IMG/VR virus record: IMGVR_UViG_3300037295_000263
Span: 96,001 to 160,000 of that record
Origin: a virus
Lineage: Duplodnaviria > Caudoviricetes
Length of the DNA: 64,000 nt
Strand: one strand, 5' to 3'
Numbering within the stretch: the first letter of the stretch is position 1; every line of letters begins with the position of its first letter. Under the pieces are notes generated by a model. That model ran no database searches and was not told where the DNA came from. It saw only the letters and a list, made by a program, of their open reading frames with translations. The position numbers were made by a program, and so were the translations under genes. Of this stretch, positions 8,815-39,455 are shown one piece after another.

Positions 8815-9969
8815 TTACTTTTTGGTTTCTCTTAGTACATCGTACATTTCAAATCGTCCACCATTACGTTCGTAAATCAATCCTGCATAGACTTCCGACT
8901 TAGTTGATTCATTAAATTTTTGCGATGCCACACGTTGTGCCCATGTAAACAACGCTTTATCAATAGGATCAATTTGTTGTTGTCCGCCACTGGCTTCTAC
9001 AATAGAGATCATTTCTTTAAATGATAGTTTACGATCAACACTTTCTTTTACTGTAGACTTTTTCTTAGCAAAAGGATTTACTCCTTTTTTAGGAGCAGCA
9101 CCTTTCTTTTTATCAGCAGCAGCTTTTTTCATTGGCTCTTTCTTGTCACCGTCTTTATCTACATCTAAGAAATCAGGTTTAGCACCTTCTTTGACTTGCA
9201 TGCTTTTACAATCTTTAATCATTTCTTTTAATTTAGATTGGTCACAGTCTGGGTGCATCTTGCAAATTTCTGCTGTGGTTTTTCCATCTTTGCACATTTT
9301 AGCAATGTGCGCTTTGGACGGCATACTTTCTGTGCTATGATTCTTTCTTTCAGGCTTATCGAAGTCATATACAGAAGACTCGTCAGTTCTGTCTTCAGAG
9401 TCGCTATCTTTGTCGGAAACTTCTCTAACTTTAAGGTCGCCTAACGCCTTTAACGGATTGCCTAGCATATTGTCGAATGAAGTTTTAGCTTGTGCTTTTG
9501 TGTTAGCTTTTTTAGCAGCTTTTGCAGTTGGTTCTTTTTTATCGTCGTTTTTCTTTGCTTCTACCATTCTAGAAAACTTTAAGTCAAATGCATCGGTATT
9601 AAATGATTCTGTAGTAGCAGGTTCTTTAGCTGCAGTTTTTTTAGCGTCTCGTTTAACTTTTTTATCATCTTTATCGTCACTGCCTGGATCGTATAAACCT
9701 TTAGTTCTGTTATGACGCATACCAGTTTTAGTTTTAGTCGCCACTCCAGTCTTAGTTTGGTAAGTATCTCCTGGTTGTGCATTAGCATCAAACGCTTCTT
9801 TAGTTTCTTTTTCTTTTTTAGCCTCTGCAACATAAGATGTGCGTCCGCTCAACACTCGTAATTGAGCATCTTCAGTTAGCGTCATCGCAGAAGGTATAAC
9901 TGGAGCAGATGGAGTTTTGATTTTTCCATCGATGCTTTCAATTTTTTGAATAAGTTTTTTAAAATCCAT
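8815..9969 (-). CDS. Lys/Glu-rich putative prohead core/scaffold or internal head protein
   Basis: Low-complexity charged 384 aa; repeated hydrophobic-x-E sites (LTE, VAE, MVE, VRE, VKE, IVE); DFLDVDKDGD motif; late-type promoter upstream. Confidence 0.5.
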   Translation of the reverse strand: MDFKKLIQKIESIDGKIKTPSAPVIPSAMTLTEDAQLRVLSGRTSYVAEAKKEKETKEAFDANAQPGDTYQTKTGVATKTKTGMRHNRTKGLYDPGSDDKDDKKVKRDAKKTAAKEPATTESFNTDAFDLKFSRMVEAKKNDDKKEPTAKAAKKANTKAQAKTSFDNMLGNPLKALGDLKVREVSDKDSDSEDRTDESSVYDFDKPERKNHSTESMPSKAHIAKMCKDGKTTAEICKMHPDCDQSKLKEMIKDCKSMQVKEGAKPDFLDVDKDGDKKEPMKKAAADKKKGAAPKKGVNPFAKKKSTVKESVDRKLSFKEMISIVEASGGQQQIDPIDKALFTWAQRVASQKFNESTKSEVYAGLIYERNGGRFEMYDVLRETKK

Positions 9970-9995
9970 TTTTATTAATCCTAGAGTGTTAGATA

Positions 9996-10003
9996 TATTT
10001 ATC
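9996..10003 (-). promoter_or_regulatory. T4-type late promoter motif GATAAATA
   Basis: Overlaps the stop of the upstream gene, ~27 nt before ATG 9969. Confidence 0.55.
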
Positions 10004-10181
10004 TTTTTATGCTTCCGCCGGTCAAAAGGTTTGTTCCTTTTAAATCAAGCGCATTCTTGGCAGTACCGTTTTTATTTTTTAGGGTCTTGCCAGGTTTATT
10101 TTTATAAACAGCACCAACTGATACATTTCCTGCGGAAGTAGCACCTGCTGTTGCTGTCTCTAAAATATCTCGTATTTTCAT
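9999..10181 (-). CDS. Small putative internal virion protein (CTS-like N-terminus MKIRDILE)
   Basis: Start reassigned to 10181, 5 nt after GATAAATA; MKIRDILE|TATAG. Confidence 0.6.
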   Translation of the reverse strand: MKIRDILETATAGATSAGNVSVGAVYKNKPGKTLKNKNGTAKNALDLKGTNLLTGGSIKR

Positions 10182-10186
10182 ATTAT

Positions 10187-10194
10187 TATTTATC
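10187..10194 (-). promoter_or_regulatory. Late promoter, leaderless configuration
   Basis: GATAAATA-ATAAT-ATG. Confidence 0.65.
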
Positions 10195-10203
10195 ATAATG
10201 CTG

Positions 10204-10779
10204 CTACAAATTGCTGTTAAATTCCGGCCCTTGCAAGGTAGTGTTTGTTACTTTTTGTATAAGTTGCCATGCTAATCCTAATTTCTTCTTTTCCAATAAC
10301 TCTTTAAATATTGCTTTTTCTTCTTCGTTAGCAGACTTATAAAATTTCATAACTTCCATCATGCCAATATTTCCCTTATAACTGGCTTCGTGAGTAATAC
10401 TTTCGCCACCTCCGCCGTCGCCTCCCATAGTTCCGCTATATCCTGTATTAAACCCGTATCCTCCGTACCCCCATGCAGCACCACGAGCTTTTTTCTTTTT
10501 GCGAAATCTTTTACGTTCTTGTATGCTTTCGTCTGTATCTTTGTGCCAATAAAGAGAATTAGAATCGTAAGGCGGTGGGGCAAGATTGCGAAGCGTGCTT
10601 TTTTGTGCAGCATTGACTGCTTTGCTTCTTGCAGCAAGCGCCATTCTTTTTAAGGTTTCTGGGTCTTTTCTTTGTAATGCAGGAAAGGCACTAGTTTGAA
10701 AATGCTGTACCCACGTCGAAATGCTGTCGTTTGCAGTTGGTTTGATTCTGGATTCGACAGTAAATTCGCATGCTCTCAT
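10204..10779 (-). CDS. Putative internal virion protein (CTS-like N-terminus MRACEFTVE)
   Basis: Start at 10779 overlaps the erpA stop (ATGA); basic RKRFRKKKK patch and Gly-rich GYGGYG...GGDGGGGE segment. Confidence 0.6.
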
Positions 10780-11099
10780 ACATTGAAGCTGCTTCCGCAC
10801 CCGCATGTAGATTGTGCATTTGGATTACTAATGCTAAAAGAAGACCCCATGACATCTTCGGTATAGTCGATAACTGCTCCATACAAATACTGCATGCTCA
10901 TACAATCTACTAATAACTTAGTGTCGCCTAGGACTACTTCAAAATCGTCGTCTGATTGCTCGTCGTCGAATGTAAATCCGTATTGAAAACCACTACATCC
11001 TCCGCCTTGAACAAATGTTCGTAGTTTTAATTCAGGTTTCCCTTCTTCATGAAATAAGTCTAATATTTTAGATTTAGCTGATTCAGTAATGTTAATCAT
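10776..11099 (-). CDS. erpA: A-type Fe-S carrier, ErpA/HesB family
   Basis: [11 protein letters not shown] and C-terminal CGCGSSF motifs. Confidence 0.92.
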
Positions 11100-11107
11100 G
11101 TTTAATG

Positions 11108-11299
11108 TTATCCTGCAGCTTGGACAGATAACGACTTTTTGTGTTTATCGATTCCTTGCTTTGCTGCTTTTTTCTTGTTAGTGTGAGAACCTGCGCCGCC
11201 GCCGCCGATAGTAGCAGACGCATTTTTAGCAACGGGATTTCGTGGCTTAGCAGGTACAAGATTTTTTTTTAATTCAGTAATAAATTCGATAGCTCTCAT
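11108..11299 (-). CDS. Small basic putative internal virion protein (MRAIEFITE)
   Basis: Start 11299 lies 5 nt after GCTAAATA; N-terminus resembles T4 CTS MKTYQEFIAE. Confidence 0.65.
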
Positions 11300-11303
11300 A
11301 GTA

Positions 11304-11564
11304 CTATTTAGCATCTCCGAACCAATGTTTAAACCATTCGTCTGTTCCTGGTTTTATACTATTCTCCCTTGCTACTTGTCCTTTATTGCTGCCCTGTATG
11401 ACAGGTAGTGTTAAACTTCTATATGCAGATAGCGCAGCCTCTCCTCCTAATCCACCTAGCTGTCCGACAGCTTTTAATTGGTGGATTGGATCATCCGATG
11501 ATAATATACAATCATGGTCTTCTGACTGAGTTATATTTGCTGTTGTAATTCTAAATTGTTTCAT
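11304..11564 (-). CDS. Hypothetical protein
   Basis: Probable start MKQFRITT at 11564 (GGAA upstream); ends IKPGTDEWFKHWFG. Confidence 0.65.
   Translation of the reverse strand: MKQFRITTANITQSEDHDCILSSDDPIHQLKAVGQLGGLGGEAALSAYRSLTLPVIQGSNKGQVARENSIKPGTDEWFKHWFGDAK
11305..11312 (-). promoter_or_regulatory. Late promoter, leaderless configuration
   Basis: GCTAAATA-GTACT-ATG. Confidence 0.65.
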
Positions 11565-12150
11565 TTCCAAGACCCATTCCTTCCCTAACTCTATTATACA
11601 TCTCTCTAGAATATTTATCATTTCCAACAGTGTTGGTAAACTCGGAAAAATTGCCTTCTACTGCATGCTTTCTTGCGGTAGAAGCACTAATGCTTTCGAT
11701 ACCATCTGCATCAGGATCTCGATCTCCTGCAGATTTAAAATCTAGTTGATCAAAGTGGTAAAATCCATGGGCTTTGCCTTCTACTCCGTTATATGCAACC
11801 AACGTGTTATAAATTGATTTCCTGTCTGATCCAGCAACAAATGTTGCATTTCTATATCCAGATTCGTACAAAAATACAGCAACTTTTATTATAGTGGTTA
11901 GACTTTTATTGTTAACAACGTGACTTGCATATTTAGGATTCATTGCGCCAATAAATTTAATTTTTTCCTCATAAGTTAACGGATTCTTTTCTTTATCTTG
12001 AGTAGAACTTACAAATATCTTGTAATCGTCCCCCAGAGCGGACATGACCTCGAATAAATGAGCATGTCCTCGTGTGGGAGGATTCATTCTGCCAAAACAA
12101 AACGCAACTGTATTAGAATTAGGGTTCTCAAAGAGTTCAATTAGTTTCAT
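11551..12150 (-). CDS. HIGH-motif nucleotidyltransferase (cytidylyltransferase/NMNAT-like)
   Basis: FGRMNPPTRGH (HIGH-type), VAGSDR and ISASTARK (KMSKS-equivalent); N-terminus MKLIELFE. Confidence 0.85.
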   Translation of the reverse strand: MKLIELFENPNSNTVAFCFGRMNPPTRGHAHLFEVMSALGDDYKIFVSSTQDKEKNPLTYEEKIKFIGAMNPKYASHVVNNKSLTTIIKVAVFLYESGYRNATFVAGSDRKSIYNTLVAYNGVEGKAHGFYHFDQLDFKSAGDRDPDADGIESISASTARKHAVEGNFSEFTNTVGNDKYSREMYNRVREGMGLGNETI

Positions 12151-13046
12151 GATATAAAGTTACATATTTTTGTTTGTACATGAGTAAAGGCACTTTCGAT
12201 TTTAGACAACGACAGATTTTTTTCAATTTCTTTCATAGTTCCTATTTCTCCAGATTTTACAGTAATCATAGATTTAAATATGCCTTGTATTCTATTACCG
12301 CTTCGGGGGTTTGTCAACACCTGTTCTGAAGTTGTTAACAGTTCGTCAAATGATAAACTTAAATTATATTGATATAATAGTTTTCGTAAATCTTCAAAAT
12401 TCTTAGATGTCCATAAAATTTCTTTATTCAATTGATTAAATGTTCCAGGAACGTAACTAACTCTACGTAGCTGTAGTTCAACACTAGACAGATTAAATTC
12501 ATATTCTTGATCGAGTGGTAATTCACTATCTACTTCGATGCCCAACTTTGCAAATAGAATTGAAGGAGCAGTTTCGATAGCTGCAACTTTGACTAGTCCT
12601 AGTATTATACCTTGCTTAGCAGCAGGCAAATCCAAAAATTGTTTCTTAAATAGTGCTTCTGTAGAATCTAACGCAATGATATTGTCGATTTGCACACTAT
12701 ACCCTAACTGTTTGTCATAATAACGAACCGTAACTAGTTCTCCAGTGTTGTATGTCTTTTTACCTGAATGTTTAACAGAAGTAAACGGAACAATAACAGA
12801 ATCAGGCATCTGATTAAAGAATACCACTAATTCTTTTTTAACTGTAGGTTTATCATGAGCCGACTCGACATGTACAATGATATCGATATCACCAAAGCTT
12901 GTTTTGTTAAAATCGGAGTTGTAACTTCCTGAAACGTGCAACGAAACGAACCCTGGAAATTTTGAAATAATGTTGTCGTATGATAACAAAAATTTATCGA
13001 AGTCGGCTCTACTTTTTACCCGATCAGCACCAGTAGACCCGCTCAT
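12147..13046 (-). CDS. Pol-beta superfamily (minimal PolX-like) nucleotidyltransferase
   Basis: SGSY...FGDIDIIV plus third Asp in VQIDN. Confidence 0.7.
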   Translation of the reverse strand: MSGSTGADRVKSRADFDKFLLSYDNIISKFPGFVSLHVSGSYNSDFNKTSFGDIDIIVHVESAHDKPTVKKELVVFFNQMPDSVIVPFTSVKHSGKKTYNTGELVTVRYYDKQLGYSVQIDNIIALDSTEALFKKQFLDLPAAKQGIILGLVKVAAIETAPSILFAKLGIEVDSELPLDQEYEFNLSSVELQLRRVSYVPGTFNQLNKEILWTSKNFEDLRKLLYQYNLSLSFDELLTTSEQVLTNPRSGNRIQGIFKSMITVKSGEIGTMKEIEKNLSLSKIESAFTHVQTKICNFIS

Positions 13047-14032
13047 TATAATTGTGCTAACAAGTTTGATGTAGCAGGAAGAAATTTTCCTGACAAACTC
13101 AATTTATCTTTCCTTAAAATCCATTCCTCTTGCAAATTATTAGGAATATCTGCTCGTGTAGAATCAAGTATTTTAAAATATACATTCAAAAGCTGAGAAT
13201 AGTCTGCAGGTTTCATTTTTTCTTTAAGCAGTGCATGCAACTTAAAATAGTCTTCTGCATCTTCTTGTAATATATCAAACCCTAATCGTGCGCTTAGCAT
13301 TGCAAGTGCTTGACCTGGATCGTGTGCGACAACAAGATCAGTATCTTTATCTTTTACCCCAGTAACATGATTAAATGATAAATTAGCTACTTGGAATGCC
13401 GATAACATTAATTGTGTGCGATGCAGGCCCTTAACATTCGAAGTTAACAAACGCGGAGCAGAGTAATAAGAAAATTTAAGCCATGGCAGATCACCCACCA
13501 TCCAATCTATCTGAACATTTATATCTAGCTTTTTTCCAGAAGCATTACTTTGTGGGTAAAGCCCAAACATGTTTCCAGTGGAAACTTTTTTCTCGTCAGC
13601 TTTCAATACAGGTGCTTTGATGTTAATTTGTTTTGCTAATACTTTTAAAAATGCTTTCATTCTTAATTGAGAAGGTGTGGAAGTACGGGCTCGCTTAGTT
13701 AGTAATTGGAATTCAGCTAACACTTCAGCCGGGTCTACTCCCCATTCTGCAATAGCATTGTCTGACATATCTTTGTCTAAAATAACCGATACATCCACTG
13801 CTAAATCAATATCTCCTGATTCGTCTACTTTACCAACAGAACCTACAGGATTAAAGTATTGTTCATTAAAGATTTTAGACTTATTTGGAAAAATTGCAGC
13901 TAACTCTTTAAAATACTCATTTAATGTTGGGCTAATATTTTCTTTCTTAATGCCACTAGTTTGCCCTTTGAAAACGTTTCCGCCTTCAACTACTAATACT
14001 GGTTGTATGTCTGTGTGTTGATCAATCTTCAT
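13046..14032 (-). CDS. Pol-beta superfamily (minimal PolX-like) nucleotidyltransferase
   Basis: VGSVGK...SGDIDLAV plus third Asp in VQIDWM; N-terminal VVE|GGNVFK. Confidence 0.7.
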   Translation of the reverse strand: MKIDQHTDIQPVLVVEGGNVFKGQTSGIKKENISPTLNEYFKELAAIFPNKSKIFNEQYFNPVGSVGKVDESGDIDLAVDVSVILDKDMSDNAIAEWGVDPAEVLAEFQLLTKRARTSTPSQLRMKAFLKVLAKQINIKAPVLKADEKKVSTGNMFGLYPQSNASGKKLDINVQIDWMVGDLPWLKFSYYSAPRLLTSNVKGLHRTQLMLSAFQVANLSFNHVTGVKDKDTDLVVAHDPGQALAMLSARLGFDILQEDAEDYFKLHALLKEKMKPADYSQLLNVYFKILDSTRADIPNNLQEEWILRKDKLSLSGKFLPATSNLLAQL

Positions 14033-14363
14033 TGTAATCGCCTTTTGTGATAAATTGTTCTTGTTCCTCGGATATTTTTTTTGCTAACTTTTGTATTTCA
14101 TACTTGTCGAACTTTTCTTTTGAATTTTCTACTTCGTATTTTTCTAAATAATGTTTGAGACATTGCTTTACTGGCTGTACATATAATTTCCATACGTCAG
14201 GATTTCCAACATACTTTTTATGTTTTTCAACAGTAGGAAAGATGTAATTTCCTAGCATTTTGTTATCGTTATCGATAAAGAATTTTAAGTCAGCTGCCCA
14301 ATCGACATCTTGATCATTTTCTTTAGGACCACCAACAGGACTAAACATTTCTTTTAATAACAT
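14022..14363 (-). CDS. Hypothetical protein (N-terminus MLLKEMFS)
   Basis: 113-aa ORF; first gene of the NTase operon; GGTGAT SD-like sequence. Confidence 0.7.
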   Translation of the reverse strand: MLLKEMFSPVGGPKENDQDVDWAADLKFFIDNDNKMLGNYIFPTVEKHKKYVGNPDVWKLYVQPVKQCLKHYLEKYEVENSKEKFDKYEIQKLAKKISEEQEQFITKGDYNED

Positions 14364-14421: not shown

Positions 14422-14429
14422 TATTTATC
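14422..14429 (-). promoter_or_regulatory. Late promoter motif GATAAATA for the NTase operon
   Basis: Intergenic, upstream of 14363; the leader contains a hairpin at 14388-14414. Confidence 0.55.
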
Positions 14430-14793: not shown

Positions 14794-14801
14794 TATTTAT
14801 C
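14794..14801 (-). promoter_or_regulatory. Late promoter, leaderless configuration
   Basis: GATAAATA-ATGTT-ATG. Confidence 0.65.
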
Positions 14802-20047: not shown

Positions 20048-20782
20048 TTATAACCTTTTTAATAGTAATGAATTATCGCCATTCTTAAAAAGAAAATGGT
20101 CTTGATACTTGTCTATCTGATAATCTCCTAATACTTTGGTAAGCCAGAAAATCTCACCCATTGCATTAGTATCCAATGATGCTGCTCCTTCTATCACAGC
20201 TTGCGGATTATCTTCAGAAATTATCTCTAACTGAACTGTTTTTCCAAAGGGTTTATGTATTGTAATTATGTTGTTACTAATGGATAAATCATCCATTAAT
20301 GTTTTGTTAAAAAACTGTTTAATACCTTCTGTTTTAATTTTTAAAAGTAAACCATCGTATAGCTGAGGAGTCGAAGGAACTACTTCTCCGAGTACATCCA
20401 TGGAGGCTTCGTGTATTTGCGAATTCTTATGATATTTGAATTTCCAATCATTTATATTGGTTAATTTGTACACCCCATAAGTTAAGTCTTTAATTTGTTC
20501 AGATAATTGATCAGTTCTTTTTATTTCAACGAATATAGAATATTCTCCATTTTCGTTTTCTCCAGAGCTGATATCAGCATCTAATACAAAGTTATATCCT
20601 TTCTCAATAAACTCCATAAGATCTCTTGCAGGCGCCCGATCCTTAGCAGTAAAGCTTATCACACATACGTCTCGATCTTCGCCCATTTTTGATTTATAAG
20701 AATCAACTTCGAAGGTGGGGTATATCATTTCTTGTAAATCGTTAGTACGTAGTCCTTCAAATATCTGTTGGTAATTCTTCAT
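20048..20782 (-). CDS. Hypothetical phage protein (N-terminus MKNYQQIFE)
   Basis: Start reassigned to 20782; no catalytic motif recognised. Confidence 0.7.
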   Translation of the reverse strand: MKNYQQIFEGLRTNDLQEMIYPTFEVDSYKSKMGEDRDVCVISFTAKDRAPARDLMEFIEKGYNFVLDADISSGENENGEYSIFVEIKRTDQLSEQIKDLTYGVYKLTNINDWKFKYHKNSQIHEASMDVLGEVVPSTPQLYDGLLLKIKTEGIKQFFNKTLMDDLSISNNIITIHKPFGKTVQLEIISEDNPQAVIEGAASLDTNAMGEIFWLTKVLGDYQIDKYQDHFLFKNGDNSLLLKRL

Positions 20783-21293
20783 CTGTAATATCCTGTATTT
20801 TTTGTTCTGTGCTGTCTTTACTGGAGGCTTGTATAGTTTGTTGGTTAACAATGTCAGCTACTTTATTTTGGTCAAGATTTCGGTAACCTCTATTAATATC
20901 GTTCATAAGCTTCTTAGGAATAGTTATGCGAACACTCCAAATAGGGGAATAATCGATTTTACCTTTACGAGTTCCTGCTCGAATATCCTCTGGTTTTTTA
21001 ATTTTTCTAACACTTGCTATTTTACTTTCGGCAAATTCTACCTTGCATCCGTAATCAATTAGCCGTGTGCCGGCTGTTGGATCAGGCATTTTGTCGTATG
21101 GCCACATAAATGTACATTCGACAAAGTATCTTTTTTCGTACGGACCACTGACTAATTCCCCATCTATCCAGTTATCGTAAACATACATGTCTAGTTCATC
21201 TAACACTCTTTCAAAATCTTTGAGTAAATTTAAACTATTGTTAGATCCGTATATTTGCTCAATGTTTTGAATAATATCTTTAATATCGGCCAT
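20757..21293 (-). CDS. Hypothetical phage protein
   Basis: 178 aa; SD GAGGAG; late motif GATAAATA at 21310-21317. Confidence 0.75.
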   Translation of the reverse strand: MADIKDIIQNIEQIYGSNNSLNLLKDFERVLDELDMYVYDNWIDGELVSGPYEKRYFVECTFMWPYDKMPDPTAGTRLIDYGCKVEFAESKIASVRKIKKPEDIRAGTRKGKIDYSPIWSVRITIPKKLMNDINRGYRNLDQNKVADIVNQQTIQASSKDSTEQKIQDITDEELPTDI

Positions 21294-21309: not shown

Positions 21310-21317
21310 TATTTATC
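21310..21317 (-). promoter_or_regulatory. Late promoter motif GATAAATA
   Basis: Followed 5 nt later by GAGGAG (SD) and ATG 21293. Confidence 0.55.
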
Positions 21318-25786: not shown

Positions 25787-28545
25787 GGTAATTTTTCTCC
25801 ACGTTGCGGAAACGCAAGGTATTTATCTTCGATAGTTCCGTCTATTATGTCAATAATATATCTGTCAGCAGTAAAATTAATAGTTTTAAAATCAAATCCT
25901 GACAATTTAATTCTTGAAATAACAGATTCTGCAAATCCTACTTTAGTATAACATAATACTAATGCTTTGACGTACCCCGATTCTACCGGACTATTTGGTT
26001 GTATACTGCGCATCCATGCAGGTAAAAATTCTCTGTCTCTGATTCCAGCTTCTTTAATTCTTGATCTCATATTTTTAAAACTGTTAGGAAAGATTCGTTG
26101 GTGATCGCTATCGCTTACAAATGGAATATCACTATCGACTTTTATCGAATCGTAGCTGGTTAATACTTTGCTGTTTATATTATCGGGTAAGTTAACAGTC
26201 TTACTAATGCTTTTTCCATTTTTTTCGTACTCGTCAACTATCTCTACATATACTACTTCATATAATACTTCCTGAGTAACAAGGTCTCTGCCTATCGCCG
26301 ACGACACATTACCGAATTTAAGTTGTTTTTGGTAATGATTTTTTGCCATTGCTTGAATGTATTTTTCAGCTTTGATACTTTCTATACCAGCATAAACCAG
26401 TACTCGTAAAGTAGTTTGTACTCCAAAGTTAGGATCGCCGACTCTGTAAATTTCCGAAGGGTTAAAAATATTAACATCGGTAATAAAACTAGTCCACTGT
26501 AGTCTTTTAGATTTTTCTTGGAATGCTTTTATATACAAATTTGCAAATGTCGTGGAATCAGTTGCATTAATAGAAATAACAAAATCTTTAATGCTTTCTG
26601 CAAAATTTGCTGTATCTTTAGCTTTAATTTTAAAATTAAAATCTCTGTCAAACGTAGTATTATCGAGACTAAAAGTAGTGTTGAACTCTCGTACACCATC
26701 AACAACCTCGAAGAACCTAGTTAATCCTTTGCCGGATGCATCAGCAAATTGTTTAACTTTTCCTTGTATGCTTCCCGAAGCAGATACTGATAGTCCAGGA
26801 GGAAGAACGCCGTCTGATAATTCATAAACTATTTTAGAATTTCCAGCAAGTCCTATTGCCTTGACTTCTAGTGTGCTAGGCTGATTAGTTTTAATTGTTC
26901 CTAAATGTCGAGAGCTTACCCAAGTAATGCTATTTTCAATTTCTCCAACAATACTTACAGTAAATGTTTTCTCAGAACTAGAAACACCAATTTCCCAAAA
27001 TTCTAAATTAGTTGGGTAAATATTTTTGTTAGTCCGACGACAGATATAGATAAATCCTTGAAATCTAACTGTTTGATTTTCTGTATAAAAAATACCAGGA
27101 TTCCAATCTCCGACAAAATCGTAATTTTGAGCAGACAACTCTGCTGGAAAATTAACAGCCTGCATAGTGAATTTATATCCTATAGCAGTTGGTCGTTGAT
27201 ACGGTACTCGGCCTGCAATTTCTCCAGTGGATCTATCTAACTCCATGCCCGGGGGAAGTTCACTAATACTTTCAGGAACAATAGTTTCCCATAATGTACG
27301 ATTAGTAATTTGAAAAGTCTGATCGATAGTTGATAAATTATTTTTTGTCCAATAGAATCCTTCTTGAGGTTCGATATTTTCGATATTTTCGATATTGTTT
27401 TTTGATAAACGTACCCAAGTCTGATTAATTACTGCAGGATCCGTATCACTTTGAAAAATAACTGCATCGCCTGCATTGTATGTCAGAAAAGGGCTCCATG
27501 GTCCTTTTAAAGAATATTTAAAATAAGGAATTATATTGCTTAATTCAAAATTACCGTCGACTGTTTGTCCTGTTTCTATAATTTTATATTTTCCAGGATT
27601 TTTTTCAATTAAAAAATAAGTAATAGAACCAGGCAGCGAGGGCGGATTATAAACATCAAGATATATAGTTACGTAGTTGTTAGCACGATACCGACCTAGA
27701 TCAGATTCAGTAATCCATATAGGAGCCCGGTTTGAATTGTTATCAGCTCTAAATAGGTTGGTATCTACTTGAACAATAGTGTTGTCCGATTTTAGAAATT
27801 CTTCGGTGACTACCCACATCTTAAATACTTGCCTAACTTCGTGTAGTCCGTCGGACGCCGCAATTACAAAGCTGTAGGACCTGCTAATTCTTTTTGGAGT
27901 AATAGACTCGTCGGAGTAATCAAAAGTAAATGTATCGTATAAAAATGTATCAAAACCATTCGAAGTAGATCGATATACATCCAACGGGGAAATATCATAC
28001 CCAACAGTGTCGAACGCTCCTGTTTGATTGTCATAATCTACTGCAAATATTGGATCAGTAAATCCGGAAATTACGCCGTCGCGACTAAGAGCCAGCCCAG
28101 GCGGGAGTTGTCCACCTGATAATACTTGATAAAATTCTAACTTGTCTCCGGCTATTATATCTCTGTCGTCTGCAACTAGTTTATAATTAACATACGCATT
28201 ATCGAGTACAAAGTAATTGTTGCCTTGACCTACGTTAAGATATCCTTCTTTAGTAACCCATTCTGGTACATCAGAACCATTGACTACTAGATTAAATGTT
28301 ATATCTTTTATTGAGTCTCCATCCGATGCCCTAACAACAAATCGGCTAACAGTGGACCGTTGCACTTCACCGGGGCTGCCTTTAATAACTCCGTTATCTA
28401 ATCGTAATCCAGTTGGTAGTTTCCCTGCTATTATACGATAGGACACAGGACCTATTGATGAAATTGCTACAATAGGAATTTGAATAATTGCTCTTTCTTC
28501 TAACGTTCCTAGATTACCAGCGGGTGTGCTCCATGCTATTGCCAT
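25783..28545 (-). CDS. Putative baseplate wedge protein with Ig-like repeats
   Basis: Repeated GxLPxGLxL...GxIxG Ig-like (He_PIG-type) modules; 920 aa. Confidence 0.65.
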   Translation of the reverse strand: MAIAWSTPAGNLGTLEERAIIQIPIVAISSIGPVSYRIIAGKLPTGLRLDNGVIKGSPGEVQRSTVSRFVVRASDGDSIKDITFNLVVNGSDVPEWVTKEGYLNVGQGNNYFVLDNAYVNYKLVADDRDIIAGDKLEFYQVLSGGQLPPGLALSRDGVISGFTDPIFAVDYDNQTGAFDTVGYDISPLDVYRSTSNGFDTFLYDTFTFDYSDESITPKRISRSYSFVIAASDGLHEVRQVFKMWVVTEEFLKSDNTIVQVDTNLFRADNNSNRAPIWITESDLGRYRANNYVTIYLDVYNPPSLPGSITYFLIEKNPGKYKIIETGQTVDGNFELSNIIPYFKYSLKGPWSPFLTYNAGDAVIFQSDTDPAVINQTWVRLSKNNIENIENIEPQEGFYWTKNNLSTIDQTFQITNRTLWETIVPESISELPPGMELDRSTGEIAGRVPYQRPTAIGYKFTMQAVNFPAELSAQNYDFVGDWNPGIFYTENQTVRFQGFIYICRRTNKNIYPTNLEFWEIGVSSSEKTFTVSIVGEIENSITWVSSRHLGTIKTNQPSTLEVKAIGLAGNSKIVYELSDGVLPPGLSVSASGSIQGKVKQFADASGKGLTRFFEVVDGVREFNTTFSLDNTTFDRDFNFKIKAKDTANFAESIKDFVISINATDSTTFANLYIKAFQEKSKRLQWTSFITDVNIFNPSEIYRVGDPNFGVQTTLRVLVYAGIESIKAEKYIQAMAKNHYQKQLKFGNVSSAIGRDLVTQEVLYEVVYVEIVDEYEKNGKSISKTVNLPDNINSKVLTSYDSIKVDSDIPFVSDSDHQRIFPNSFKNMRSRIKEAGIRDREFLPAWMRSIQPNSPVESGYVKALVLCYTKVGFAESVISRIKLSGFDFKTINFTADRYIIDIIDGTIEDKYLAFPQRGEKLP

Positions 28546-35705: not shown

Positions 35706-35713
35706 TATTTATC
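35706..35713 (-). promoter_or_regulatory. Late promoter motif GATAAATA
   Basis: Overlaps the iscA stop, upstream of the fibre gene. Confidence 0.55.
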
Positions 35714-38123: not shown

Positions 38124-38131
38124 TATTTATC
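38124..38131 (-). promoter_or_regulatory. Late promoter, leaderless configuration
   Basis: GATAAATA-TAATT-ATG. Confidence 0.65.
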
Positions 38132-38450: not shown

Positions 38451-39455
38451 TTACGCTAGAAGGGCGTGAGCAGCAATGTTCTTTCCTTTGCTCTCCGCCA
38501 TTATATCAAAGTAGTCTCGAAAACTTAGTGCCCATTCATTAACTGCTGTATTCCAGTAGAATTCCGAATGTGCTCTGAGCTTTTGCTTTTTGTAACCAGC
38601 AGCTAATAGCGCAGGCATATCCGGTAATGTGTTAGGGCAGTGATCTACCAATACATTTTCTCTGCTAACACTATAATGCATAACAGGACGAACACCGCGC
38701 CAGGAATCCCGTACACGCTTAACGCTATCCGAATTTGGGTCAATATATTCGCCTTCTCTGCACCAGTTGTGGTGAACATCAAGAACAATAGGCACAATAT
38801 CACTAATACTGAGACAATCATCTAATCCCCATGAGTTTTCTTCGTTTTCGATTGTGATACAGTTTCTCGCTTCATTAGAAAGTCTAGGATACGCTGCTCT
38901 AATACCATCTGGGCCGAGTCGGCCGCTAATGTGTACATTGATTTTAAAGTCTTGAAAAGTTCGTCCATATCCCATCCACCTTGCCATATCAGCATGATAC
39001 TCAAATTCTTCTATACTCCTATTTACAATATCAGGAGTTTCGCTTGCCAAAACAGTAAACTGGCCAGGGTGGAAAGAAAGACGTACATTAAGCAGTCTTG
39101 CACTAGCACCCACTTGCTCAAAATGCCTAGACGCATATTCTTGTACGTCATTACGACGCCAGAAATAGCTAAAATCAGGCTGAGTATATACAGGCAAAAT
39201 ATCACTGCCAAGCCGAACCATTCTAAATTCATCAGGTAATTCTCCCACGCGGTTTACCAGCAGTCTAATACTTTCTATGTTTTGAACCATTAAATCCCAC
39301 AGCTTTTGTTCAGCTTCGTCGCGAGGTTGCCGCTTGAGCCAAGCTACTGTAGTACCACCCGTATTATATTTCTTACAGTCGTCTGTAGGTTTGATACCGT
39401 TAATTTGATCTACAGTATCAATCCACTTACAGGCAAATCCAATTTTGTTAGTCAT
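38451..39455 (-). CDS. uvsE: UV damage endonuclease (UvsE/UvdE)
   Basis: KIGFAC, RLSFHPGQF, NVHISG, TIENEE, LDVHH and HYS motifs. Confidence 0.93.
   Translation of the reverse strand: MTNKIGFACKWIDTVDQINGIKPTDDCKKYNTGGTTVAWLKRQPRDEAEQKLWDLMVQNIESIRLLVNRVGELPDEFRMVRLGSDILPVYTQPDFSYFWRRNDVQEYASRHFEQVGASARLLNVRLSFHPGQFTVLASETPDIVNRSIEEFEYHADMARWMGYGRTFQDFKINVHISGRLGPDGIRAAYPRLSNEARNCITIENEENSWGLDDCLSISDIVPIVLDVHHNWCREGEYIDPNSDSVKRVRDSWRGVRPVMHYSVSRENVLVDHCPNTLPDMPALLAAGYKKQKLRAHSEFYWNTAVNEWALSFRDYFDIMAESKGKNIAAHALLA

Follow-up and report, generated by a model that had tools for sequence, protein, structure and literature searches.

What is the purpose of three translationally coupled genes for nucleotidyl-transfer enzymes in an operon of a large, uncultured T4-like phage from water, an operon that looks late and payload-like? 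The genes lie in a 64,000-nucleotide stretch (the window; positions 96,001 to 160,000 of IMG/VR virus record IMGVR_UViG_3300037295_000263), part of a 216.7-kb phage record with a CheckV completeness of 59%. They are NTase-A (A; 13046-14032, 328 amino acids) and NTase-B (B; 12147-13046, 299 amino acids), two predicted minimal PolX-like nucleotidyltransferases, and HIGH (11551-12150, 199 amino acids), a HIGH-signature nucleotidyltransferase of the phage 'cytitidyltransferase' family. All features of the operon given here are on the minus strand. An earlier note, made from the sequence alone, had described the three genes as translationally coupled, and the junctions are as it described: TAATG at 13046 holds the stop of A and the start of B, and ATGA at 12147-12150 holds the stop of B and the start of HIGH. 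The coupled string begins one gene further upstream with orf113 (14022-14363), which overlaps the start of A by 11 nt, and thus comprises four open reading frames (ORFs) in all. The phage carries T4-type replication and head genes, including a family-B DNA polymerase (window 5422-8091), a clamp loader and, elsewhere in the genome, portal, gp21-type protease and gp23-type capsid genes. The answer that we favour, at a probability of roughly 45%, is that orf113-A-B-HIGH is a late operon encoding a three-enzyme nucleotidyl-transfer cargo, packed in the head and injected, that fills or repairs the 3' ends of nucleic acids.

Both A and B appear to be catalytically intact, judging from their motifs. 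The GS, DxD and third-aspartate triads that the earlier note had recognized in the two proteins are present and invariant in family alignments of 38 sequences. In A these are GS-x8-DID (13805-13843; G64, S65, D74, I75 and D76) and the third carboxylate motif QID (13505-13513; Q174 and D176), and in B GS-x11-DID (12882-12929; G40, S41, D53, I54 and D55) and QID (12684-12692; Q119 and D121). Each protein therefore has the hG[GS], DxD and third Asp of a Pol-beta-type palm. Predicted models of both align to Pol beta residues 142-338 (palm and thumb) only, with no residue placed on Pol beta 1-141. A PolX-type thumb directly follows the palm in the models, and the 8-kDa 5'-deoxyribose-phosphate lyase domain, whose absence had already been noted, and the helix-hairpin-helix (HhH) fingers are found in neither. 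This excludes a canonical PolX architecture but not the minimal PolX type, because both the lyase domain and the fingers are likewise missing from African swine fever virus (ASFV) Pol X.

Structural comparison of the models places them with the family-X polymerases. Family-X matches span 160-180 aligned residues, palm plus thumb, and TdT, Leishmania Pol beta, Pol lambda, Thermus PolX and Pol mu are among the top rows for both proteins. Matches to CD-NTase, MenT, OAS, TUTase, CCA-adding enzyme and poly(A) polymerase cover the palm only (about 105-118 residues), and CD-NTase, MenT and OAS rank beneath every family-X row for both. Among these options, family-X polymerases are thus preferred to CD-NTase, MenT, CCA and TUTase enzymes, which are matched over a palm of about 105 residues. 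Foldseek searches of the PDB, Swiss-Prot, BFVD and the ESM Atlas agree with a PolX-like fold; in the Atlas and BFVD, the closest clusters outside their own families hold PolX proteins of giant viruses and fusions of PolX with a ligase. The models have a beta-containing PolX thumb and appear to lack both the all-helical central or PAP-associated domain and the CCA-type neck and body. In each, about 60 further residues form a helical segment at the C-terminus, and A has a helical insertion at residues 81-139. On the strength of these models, A and B can be classed with ASFV Pol X as minimal PolX-like enzymes that have neither an 8-kDa nor a fingers module.

The suggestion that A and B look paralogous is not supported by comparison of the two sequences. 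BLASTP finds no similarity between them, and profile-profile alignment (hhalign) gives an E-value of 0.07 over 53 columns, confined to the helix-GS-DxD stretch. By these comparisons they are two different enzymes with a common fold, without evidence of recent duplication. Neither has a meaningful match to any Pfam, NCBIfam or PHROG family. A blastn search of the region against 50,697 phage records returned no match, and tblastn returned only Flavobacterium phage immuto. For A, a word-indexed search gave at least 1534 proteins of the family; for B, 199 family clusters at 50% identity emerged when 1.84 billion representatives were searched exhaustively.

The third protein is of the HIGH type, as had been proposed. 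Its HIGH motif, GRMNPPTRGH (residues 20-29, 12064-12093), contains an invariant H29 and nearly invariant G20, P24 and T26, and its second signature, ISASTAR (residues 154-160, 11671-11691), contains nearly invariant S155 and R160. With a score of 25.9 bits against PF01467 (CTP_transf_like; cut-off 21), it shows all the marks of the HIGH-signature nucleotidylyltransferase superfamily, namely (H/T)xGH (as PPTRGH, residues 24-29), ISxSxxR and the Pfam score. Among PHROG families it matches phrog_3041 (7.6e-44) and phrog_395 (9.4e-37), the phage 'cytitidyltransferase' family, which we found in 550 phage records at 29-44% identity, mostly from T4-like cyanophages and RaK2-like jumbo phages. The family profile matches the nicotinamide mononucleotide (NMN) adenylyltransferase (NMNAT) MJ0541 (1.5e-4) and phosphopantetheine adenylyltransferase (PPAT; 1.8e-4) about equally in the PDB. 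HIGH has the family-specific motifs AGSDR and RDPDAD and is without a Nudix or kinase partner domain. A literature search on 'cytitidyltransferase', 'DUF6267' (discussed below) and phage PolX found no functional study.

Conservation of gene order and gene fusions tie the three proteins together. In our synteny sample of 80 related IMG/VR viral loci, A is immediately upstream of B in all 80. Domain orders read from the best 150 of the 199 B-family clusters include B alone (55 clusters), B-HIGH, mostly with a long C-terminal extension (about 60), B with an extension (17), A-B fusions (6), HIGH-A-B fusions (5) and a single A-B-HIGH fusion of 842 amino acids that repeats the gene order of the window. 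Because synteny and fusions both show linkage, A, B and HIGH are one unit. In immuto, the only cultured relative, gp089 corresponds to A and gp088 (907 amino acids, annotated 'NMNAT') to B-HIGH with an extension; this A-B pair follows a primase and an exonuclease. The extensions of the B-HIGH fusions run for 300-1000 amino acids after HIGH (for example L013:6001-9369, L008:6001-8952 and P0290, of 1580 amino acids). They show only DUF6321 and weak GNAT and DUF matches in Pfam, and tblastn found no counterpart of them in the source genome.

HIGH has another partner elsewhere. In cyanophages and Melnitz-type phages a DUF6267 gene precedes the HIGH gene (in cyanophage-type phages at L002:2332-3555, L003:2920-3789 and L004:2362-3609), and phrog_455 is a DUF6267-HIGH fusion. 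The invariant DUF6267 residues VKWDGAPAI (KxDG), EGxV and KxVDR resemble motifs I, IV and V of ligases and capping enzymes. To our knowledge, DNA ligase is generally said to be lacking from T4-like cyanophages, and these motifs indicate that DUF6267 may be an unrecognized joining enzyme. No DUF6267 gene occurs in the source genome record or in the 80 A-B loci, and hidden Markov models of A and B do not recognize the genes beside the cyanophage HIGH gene. Given that DUF6267 is beside or fused to HIGH in cyanophages and absent from A-B loci, the HIGH family has one of two partners, a ligase-like protein or the two mini-PolX enzymes, and the A-B pair stands in for DUF6267 instead of joining it. 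In a separate comparison, the A model aligned to the Atlas cluster representative of DUF6267 (PF19782) with a template-modelling (TM) score of 0.56-0.57 over 220 residues, and the catalytic motifs look different; hhalign gave E-values of 0.59 for A and 0.21 for B against DUF6267, that is, no sequence similarity.

The N-termini suggest how these enzymes might enter the head. A begins with a 16-residue leader ending V-V-E (13985-14032), a putative capsid-targeting propeptide with a predicted cut at E16|G17, and its model has pLDDT (a per-residue confidence score) below 50 at residues 1-14. The predicted mature N-terminus, GGNVF (13970-13984), has invariant G17, G18, N19 and F21. Across the A family, the leader before GGNVF is 0-74 residues long, most commonly 9-10, and where present ends in h-x-E (h, a hydrophobic residue), in keeping with T4-type propeptides of about 10-20 residues, in which L/I-x-E comes right before the mature protein: the residue before the cut (P1) is E in 149 of 155 sequences (96%), and the residue two positions further upstream (P3) is hydrophobic in 152 of the 155 (98%; L 86, I 53, V 11, M 2). 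Among the short leaders, 97 of 132 fit M-x(1,2)-h-x-[EDQ]-h-h. A further 23 A homologs are leaderless and start MGGN, including immuto gp089 (MGGNVF). The same pattern recurs at the internal borders of fusions. I-x-E|GGN is found before A in all six cases checked, of which one is an N-terminal leader and five are larger fusions (HIGH-A-B or x-A-B). The border ahead of B is [LIM]-x-E|SG in 18 of 19 fusions, and h-x-E occurs 8-9 residues ahead of the first HIGH strand in leaders and linkers alike. The window HIGH itself begins MKLIELFE. We considered that the HIGH leader might be a mere structural helix, since it stays as a linker in fusions, and dropped this idea because the same h-x-E is found at every type of junction. 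The VVE|GGN site and the CTS-like start (CTS, capsid-targeting sequence) remarked on in the earlier note are thus features of whole families.

In T4, the gp21 protease cuts after L/I-X-E (PMC9026906), and the 10-residue leader of IPIII, a CTS, suffices for targeting to the head (PMC9026906; PMC5694885). A gp21-type prohead protease gene is present in the source genome (PF03420, E 2.3e-25; G000:29156-29605), flanked by the genes for the portal (PF07230) and the major capsid protein (PF07068). In addition, mass spectrometry of purified virions of cyanophage S-CREM2 detected a member of the HIGH family, the cytidylyltransferase gp154 (PMC10665884). The window HIGH is 35% identical to gp154 (E 5e-27), which bears the leader MKNFSSFLTE. 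The first gene of the string, orf113, has an N-terminus, MLLKEMF, that resembles a capsid-targeting sequence and fits the strict leader motif; it has no Pfam or PHROG match and no homolog among the 80 related loci.

The residues that cleavage would expose are themselves strictly conserved, as GGNVF in A (residues 17-21) and as SG..GADR in B (residues 2-9, 13020-13043). Such ends could be exposed either by removal of Met (M-G, M-S) or by cleavage at [L/I]-x-E, and their conservation hints that the free N-terminus of A and B is itself functional.

The exact T4 late box, TATAAATA, has one copy in the window against 11 expected, and because of this near-absence we turned to the variant GATAAATA. 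A scan for sigma-70-type promoters performed no better than on shuffled sequence. One GATAAATA copy, a candidate T4-type late promoter, is located 58 nt upstream of orf113 (14422-14429). The other sites in the window, also all on the minus strand, are at 9996-10003, 10187-10194, 11612-11619, 14794-14801, 21310-21317, 25820-25827, 35706-35713 and 38124-38131. In the genome, each of the 17 sites has a same-sense ORF of 50 or more amino acids 5-83 nt further on; a gp67-like gene of the head core and the gene that comes after that of the major capsid protein are among these ORFs. Five of the 17 sites fall between 9996 and 14801. The core ATAAATA is depleted about three-fold in the window (14 observed, 40 expected), and nine of its nine sense-strand copies there are GATAAATA. 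Of the genomic copies, five are located exactly 5 nt ahead of an ATG, including three in the window (10187, 14794 and 38124), a spacing that suggests late mRNAs without leaders. In related loci, NATAAATA occurs upstream of A at about twice the background rate, with clusters at 33-50 and 413-453 nt. Judged by this distribution, GATAAATA behaves like a late promoter of the phage, and the operon would be expressed late.

The gp67-like gene is an 81-amino-acid ORF outside the window (G000:30616-30861, minus strand), between the portal and prohead-protease genes, and matches T4 gp67 in position and size. Its N-terminus, MLLLEFFE, resembles those of orf113 (MLLKEMF) and HIGH (MKLIELFE), and GATAAATA stands 7 nt before it.

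The earlier description of a late, payload-like operon gains support from the [L/I]-x-E borders, the leaders of 9-10 residues, the gp21-type protease, the GATAAATA upstream and the virion-detected family member. In the reading that we favour, orf113, A, B and HIGH would be expressed late as one operon; short N-terminal targeting leaders would load A, B and HIGH into the prohead, where a T4-type prohead protease would trim all three at [L/I]-x-E, and they would be delivered together with the phage DNA. A and B would then most likely act on phage DNA as it enters or replicates, extending or filling in 3' ends at gaps or nicks and 3' ends that are recessed or damaged, and HIGH, as an NMNAT/PPAT-like adenylyltransferase, would supply an adenylylated cofactor or intermediate; at its simplest, this would be NAD+ regenerated from NMN, perhaps for an NAD+-dependent ligase that seals the filled gap. 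The folds, catalytic motifs, obligate linkage and fusions, cut-site pattern and protease gene are the observed base of this reading; from them we infer the packaging of A and B, a DNA substrate, a division of labour between A and B, a need for two polymerases and the substrate of HIGH. The functions listed in the earlier note (decoy signals, tRNA repair, NMPylation and NAD+ restoration) are broader than this evidence, which points first to fill-in or repair of nucleic acids.

Several observations weigh against this reading. The fold alone leaves the substrate unfixed, whether DNA or RNA, templated or not, and the need for two polymerases is not accounted for. The 8-kDa, HhH and fingers modules, which hold DNA in canonical PolX, are absent from A and B, and the isoelectric points of the window proteins are near neutral (A 6.5, B 6.2), though the family medians are 8.4 for A and 9.1 for B. 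At the sequence level the Pfam PolX models are not reached: for DNA_pol_B_palm (cut-off 25 bits) the window B scores 12.4 and A has no match, while three divergent B-family members score 25.5-27.5, and the A and B family profiles give only chance matches in the PDB. HIGH is beneath every NMNAT equivalog cut-off, with scores and cut-offs in bits of 17.5 and 127 for NF002243, 16.5 and 403 for NF003790, 13.6 and 181 for TIGR01527 and 12.9 and 341 for TIGR01526, although it may still have NMNAT-like activity. As for packaging, h-x-E tripeptides are common; the authors of the S-CREM2 virion proteome warn of possible carry-over of abundant proteins (PMC10665884); and the leaderless homologs, including that of immuto, may not be packaged.

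The gene context speaks for repair in part. In 10-11 loci of one sublineage (L039-L041, L045, L047, L049, L053 and L058-L061), genes for an ATP-dependent DNA ligase and UvdE and then three small ORFs precede A, B and HIGH in a co-directional string, with an epimerase and PolB further downstream, and DUF6267, the cyanophage partner of HIGH, has ligase-like motifs. Against this, the synteny is restricted to that sublineage, and the UvdE gene of the source genome is 24 kb from A-B-HIGH. Searches of the 216.7-kb record found no LigA adenylation domain, ATP-dependent DNA ligase, RNA ligase, NAPRTase or Nampt, which is weak evidence in a record that is 59% complete.

The same packaging signals and late promoter would also suit a protein that acts at entry against host defences. 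Under such a scheme the injected enzymes would work on small molecules or host factors, for example by restoring NAD+ after Thoeris- or SIR2-type depletion (HIGH as an NMNAT), by producing or capping nucleotide signals, or by attaching nucleotides to proteins or tRNAs of the host. The HIGH-family sequence GRFQPPTxGH does resemble GRFQPFHKGH of the archaeal NMNAT that is the best PDB profile match (1.5e-4), and a role in NAD+ metabolism was speculated upon by authors of cyanophage papers. However, PPAT is matched as well as NMNAT, no curated model supports HIGH as an NMNAT ortholog (12.9-17.5 bits against cut-offs of 127-403), and the genome record holds neither of the partners sought, Nampt and NAPRTase. 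The CD-NTase, MenT and OAS matches of A and B, being restricted to about 105-118 palm residues and beneath all family-X rows, also speak against the scheme, which gives no reason for the fusion of HIGH to a pair of polymerase-like domains or, in sister systems, to a ligase-like one. We regard it as unlikely, although it is the strongest of the rivals. Next to it in plausibility, and likewise unlikely, is an accessory to replication or repair that stays in the cytoplasm, for example in Okazaki-gap filling or UvdE-initiated excision repair, with the leaders being ordinary helices or linkers. The neighbours across the 80 loci are indeed replication and auxiliary genes (PolB in 27 loci, ClpA-like in 22, and ferritin, RNR, DnaB-like helicase, DnaJ and deformylase, besides ligase and UvdE), the immuto pair is located behind a primase and an exonuclease, B-HIGH fusions retain the HIGH 'leader' as a linker inside the protein, and 23 A homologs have no leader. 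A linker, on the other hand, does not explain why E at P1 (96%) and a hydrophobic residue at P3 (98%) fall exactly at the domain border in leaders and in all kinds of fusion junction, nor why the commonest leader length, 9-10 residues, is that of the T4 CTS; the detection of S-CREM2 gp154 in virions and the late-type motif ahead of the operon likewise speak for packaging.

Two further explanations concern the substrate. Two distinct, always-paired and apparently active NTases recall the split CC-adding and A-adding enzymes, and A and B might accordingly be RNA-directed terminal transferases that add nucleotides in turn to RNA 3' ends, as in rebuilding tRNA CCA ends after attack by host nucleases or in tailing of host transcripts. 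The TUTase and PAP matches are palm-only, however; the models have a beta-containing PolX thumb and appear to lack PAP-associated and CCA domains, and the neighbourhood yielded no RNA ligase, PNK or tRNA-repair gene, which makes this explanation improbable. The genome also has DpdA-like and 7-deazaguanine genes, and the NTases might install or activate modified nucleotides in a DNA hypermodification pathway for which HIGH makes the activated donor. HIGH enzymes typically make NDP-activated donors, and oxidoreductase genes are present at window 1125-2911, but A-B-HIGH is about 6 kb from the DpdA-like/7-deazaguanine cluster with PolB in between, A-B is not accompanied by the modification genes across the 80 loci, and the HIGH family occurs in about 550 phages, cyanophages included, irrespective of such a cluster. 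Of all the readings weighed here we find this one the hardest to credit.

A more radical form of the packaged-cargo reading, which we consider very improbable, would be a capsid-delivered fill-and-seal machine in which a Pol-beta-fold enzyme performs the ligase step. The second mini-PolX would occupy the place of DUF6267; HIGH would adenylylate a 5'-phosphate or supply an adenylylated donor, and one of the two PolX-like enzymes would use the activated 5' end as its 'incoming nucleotide' and so join the strands. The GGNVF and SG..GADR N-termini might then add chemistry of their own, for example as an alpha-amine lyase nucleophile that replaces the 8-kDa domain.

Known systems share parts of this arrangement. 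ASFV Pol X (O174L) is a minimal family-X polymerase of a virion-packaged base-excision-repair set. It has no detectable sequence similarity to A or B, which differ from it in their size (299-328 amino acids), their extra C-terminal helices (about 60 residues), the insertion at 81-139 and GGNVF of A, their obligate pairing as two different enzymes and their third partner, which is HIGH and not a ligase or AP endonuclease. The giant-virus PolX proteins and PolX-ligase fusions, such as that of Phaeocystis globosa virus (PgVPolX), form the nearest fold clusters outside the A and B families. In such fusions, a PolX core joined to a second nucleotidyl-transfer enzyme serves fill-and-seal repair (PMC5537341), a logic like that of A-B-HIGH. 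These proteins differ in keeping HhH and fingers, in matching the Pfam PolX models and in having as partner a bona fide NAD+- or ATP-dependent ligase, whereas the partners in A-B-HIGH are a second mini-PolX and HIGH.

With the T4 internal proteins and Alt, A-B-HIGH shares a short leader (mostly 9-10 residues) ending [L/I]-x-E, a gp21-type protease gene and the diverse, non-structural nature of the cargo. It differs in consisting of enzymes with nucleotidyl-transfer folds, sometimes as a polyprotein with sites at its internal borders, and its cleavage and injection are putative. HIGH is a member of the phage 'cytitidyltransferase' family (PHROG 395/3041), with the A-B pair here in the position of the cyanophage partner DUF6267. 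With NMNAT (NadM, NadR, NadD) and PPAT (CoaD) it shares the Rossmann-type HIGH fold and the (H/T)xGH and ISxSxxR signatures, but it is far beneath the curated equivalog cut-offs, has its own motifs AGSDR and RDPDAD and lacks their Nudix or kinase partners. What is new is the combination, an obligate pair of distinct mini-PolX enzymes joined in all permutations to HIGH, with head-protease sites at the borders, widespread in aquatic phages.

If the favoured reading of a packaged 3'-end-filling cargo is true, widespread aquatic T4-like and jumbo phages would carry miniature family-X polymerases inside the capsid, and the packaging of repair enzymes known from ASFV and giant viruses would extend to bacteriophages. 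The T4 capsid-targeting route would then reach beyond small inhibitors to multi-enzyme cargo and polyproteins, and three orphan families, including the 'cytitidyltransferase' recurrent in T4-like cyanophages, would have a testable role. It would also suggest a route for mending sunlight-damaged phage DNA at entry. Mini-PolX enzymes of about 300 amino acids, without accessory domains, would be attractive as compact polymerases for biochemistry.

Other genes of the window deserve mention. Just downstream of A-B-HIGH is a HesB/IscA-type iron-sulphur cluster assembly gene (10776-11099, minus strand; PF01521, 1e-16; phrog_17776), and 18 related loci have ferritin genes in a similar position. The UvdE-type UV-damage endonuclease gene (38451-39455, minus strand; PF03851, E 2.2e-37) is directly upstream of, and just overlaps, an ORF whose start follows a GATAAATA site. 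Finally, further small genes with leader-like N-termini and GATAAATA upstream are found at 8815-11627 and 20757-21293 (minus strand). The leader-like genes encode proteins of 384 amino acids (MDFKKLIQKIE), 60-65 amino acids (MKIRDILE) and 178 amino acids (MADIKDIIQNIE), and another, outside the window at G000:210568, begins MRAYEFVVE. By their leaders and the GATAAATA copies ahead of them, such small genes are candidates for additional head cargo.

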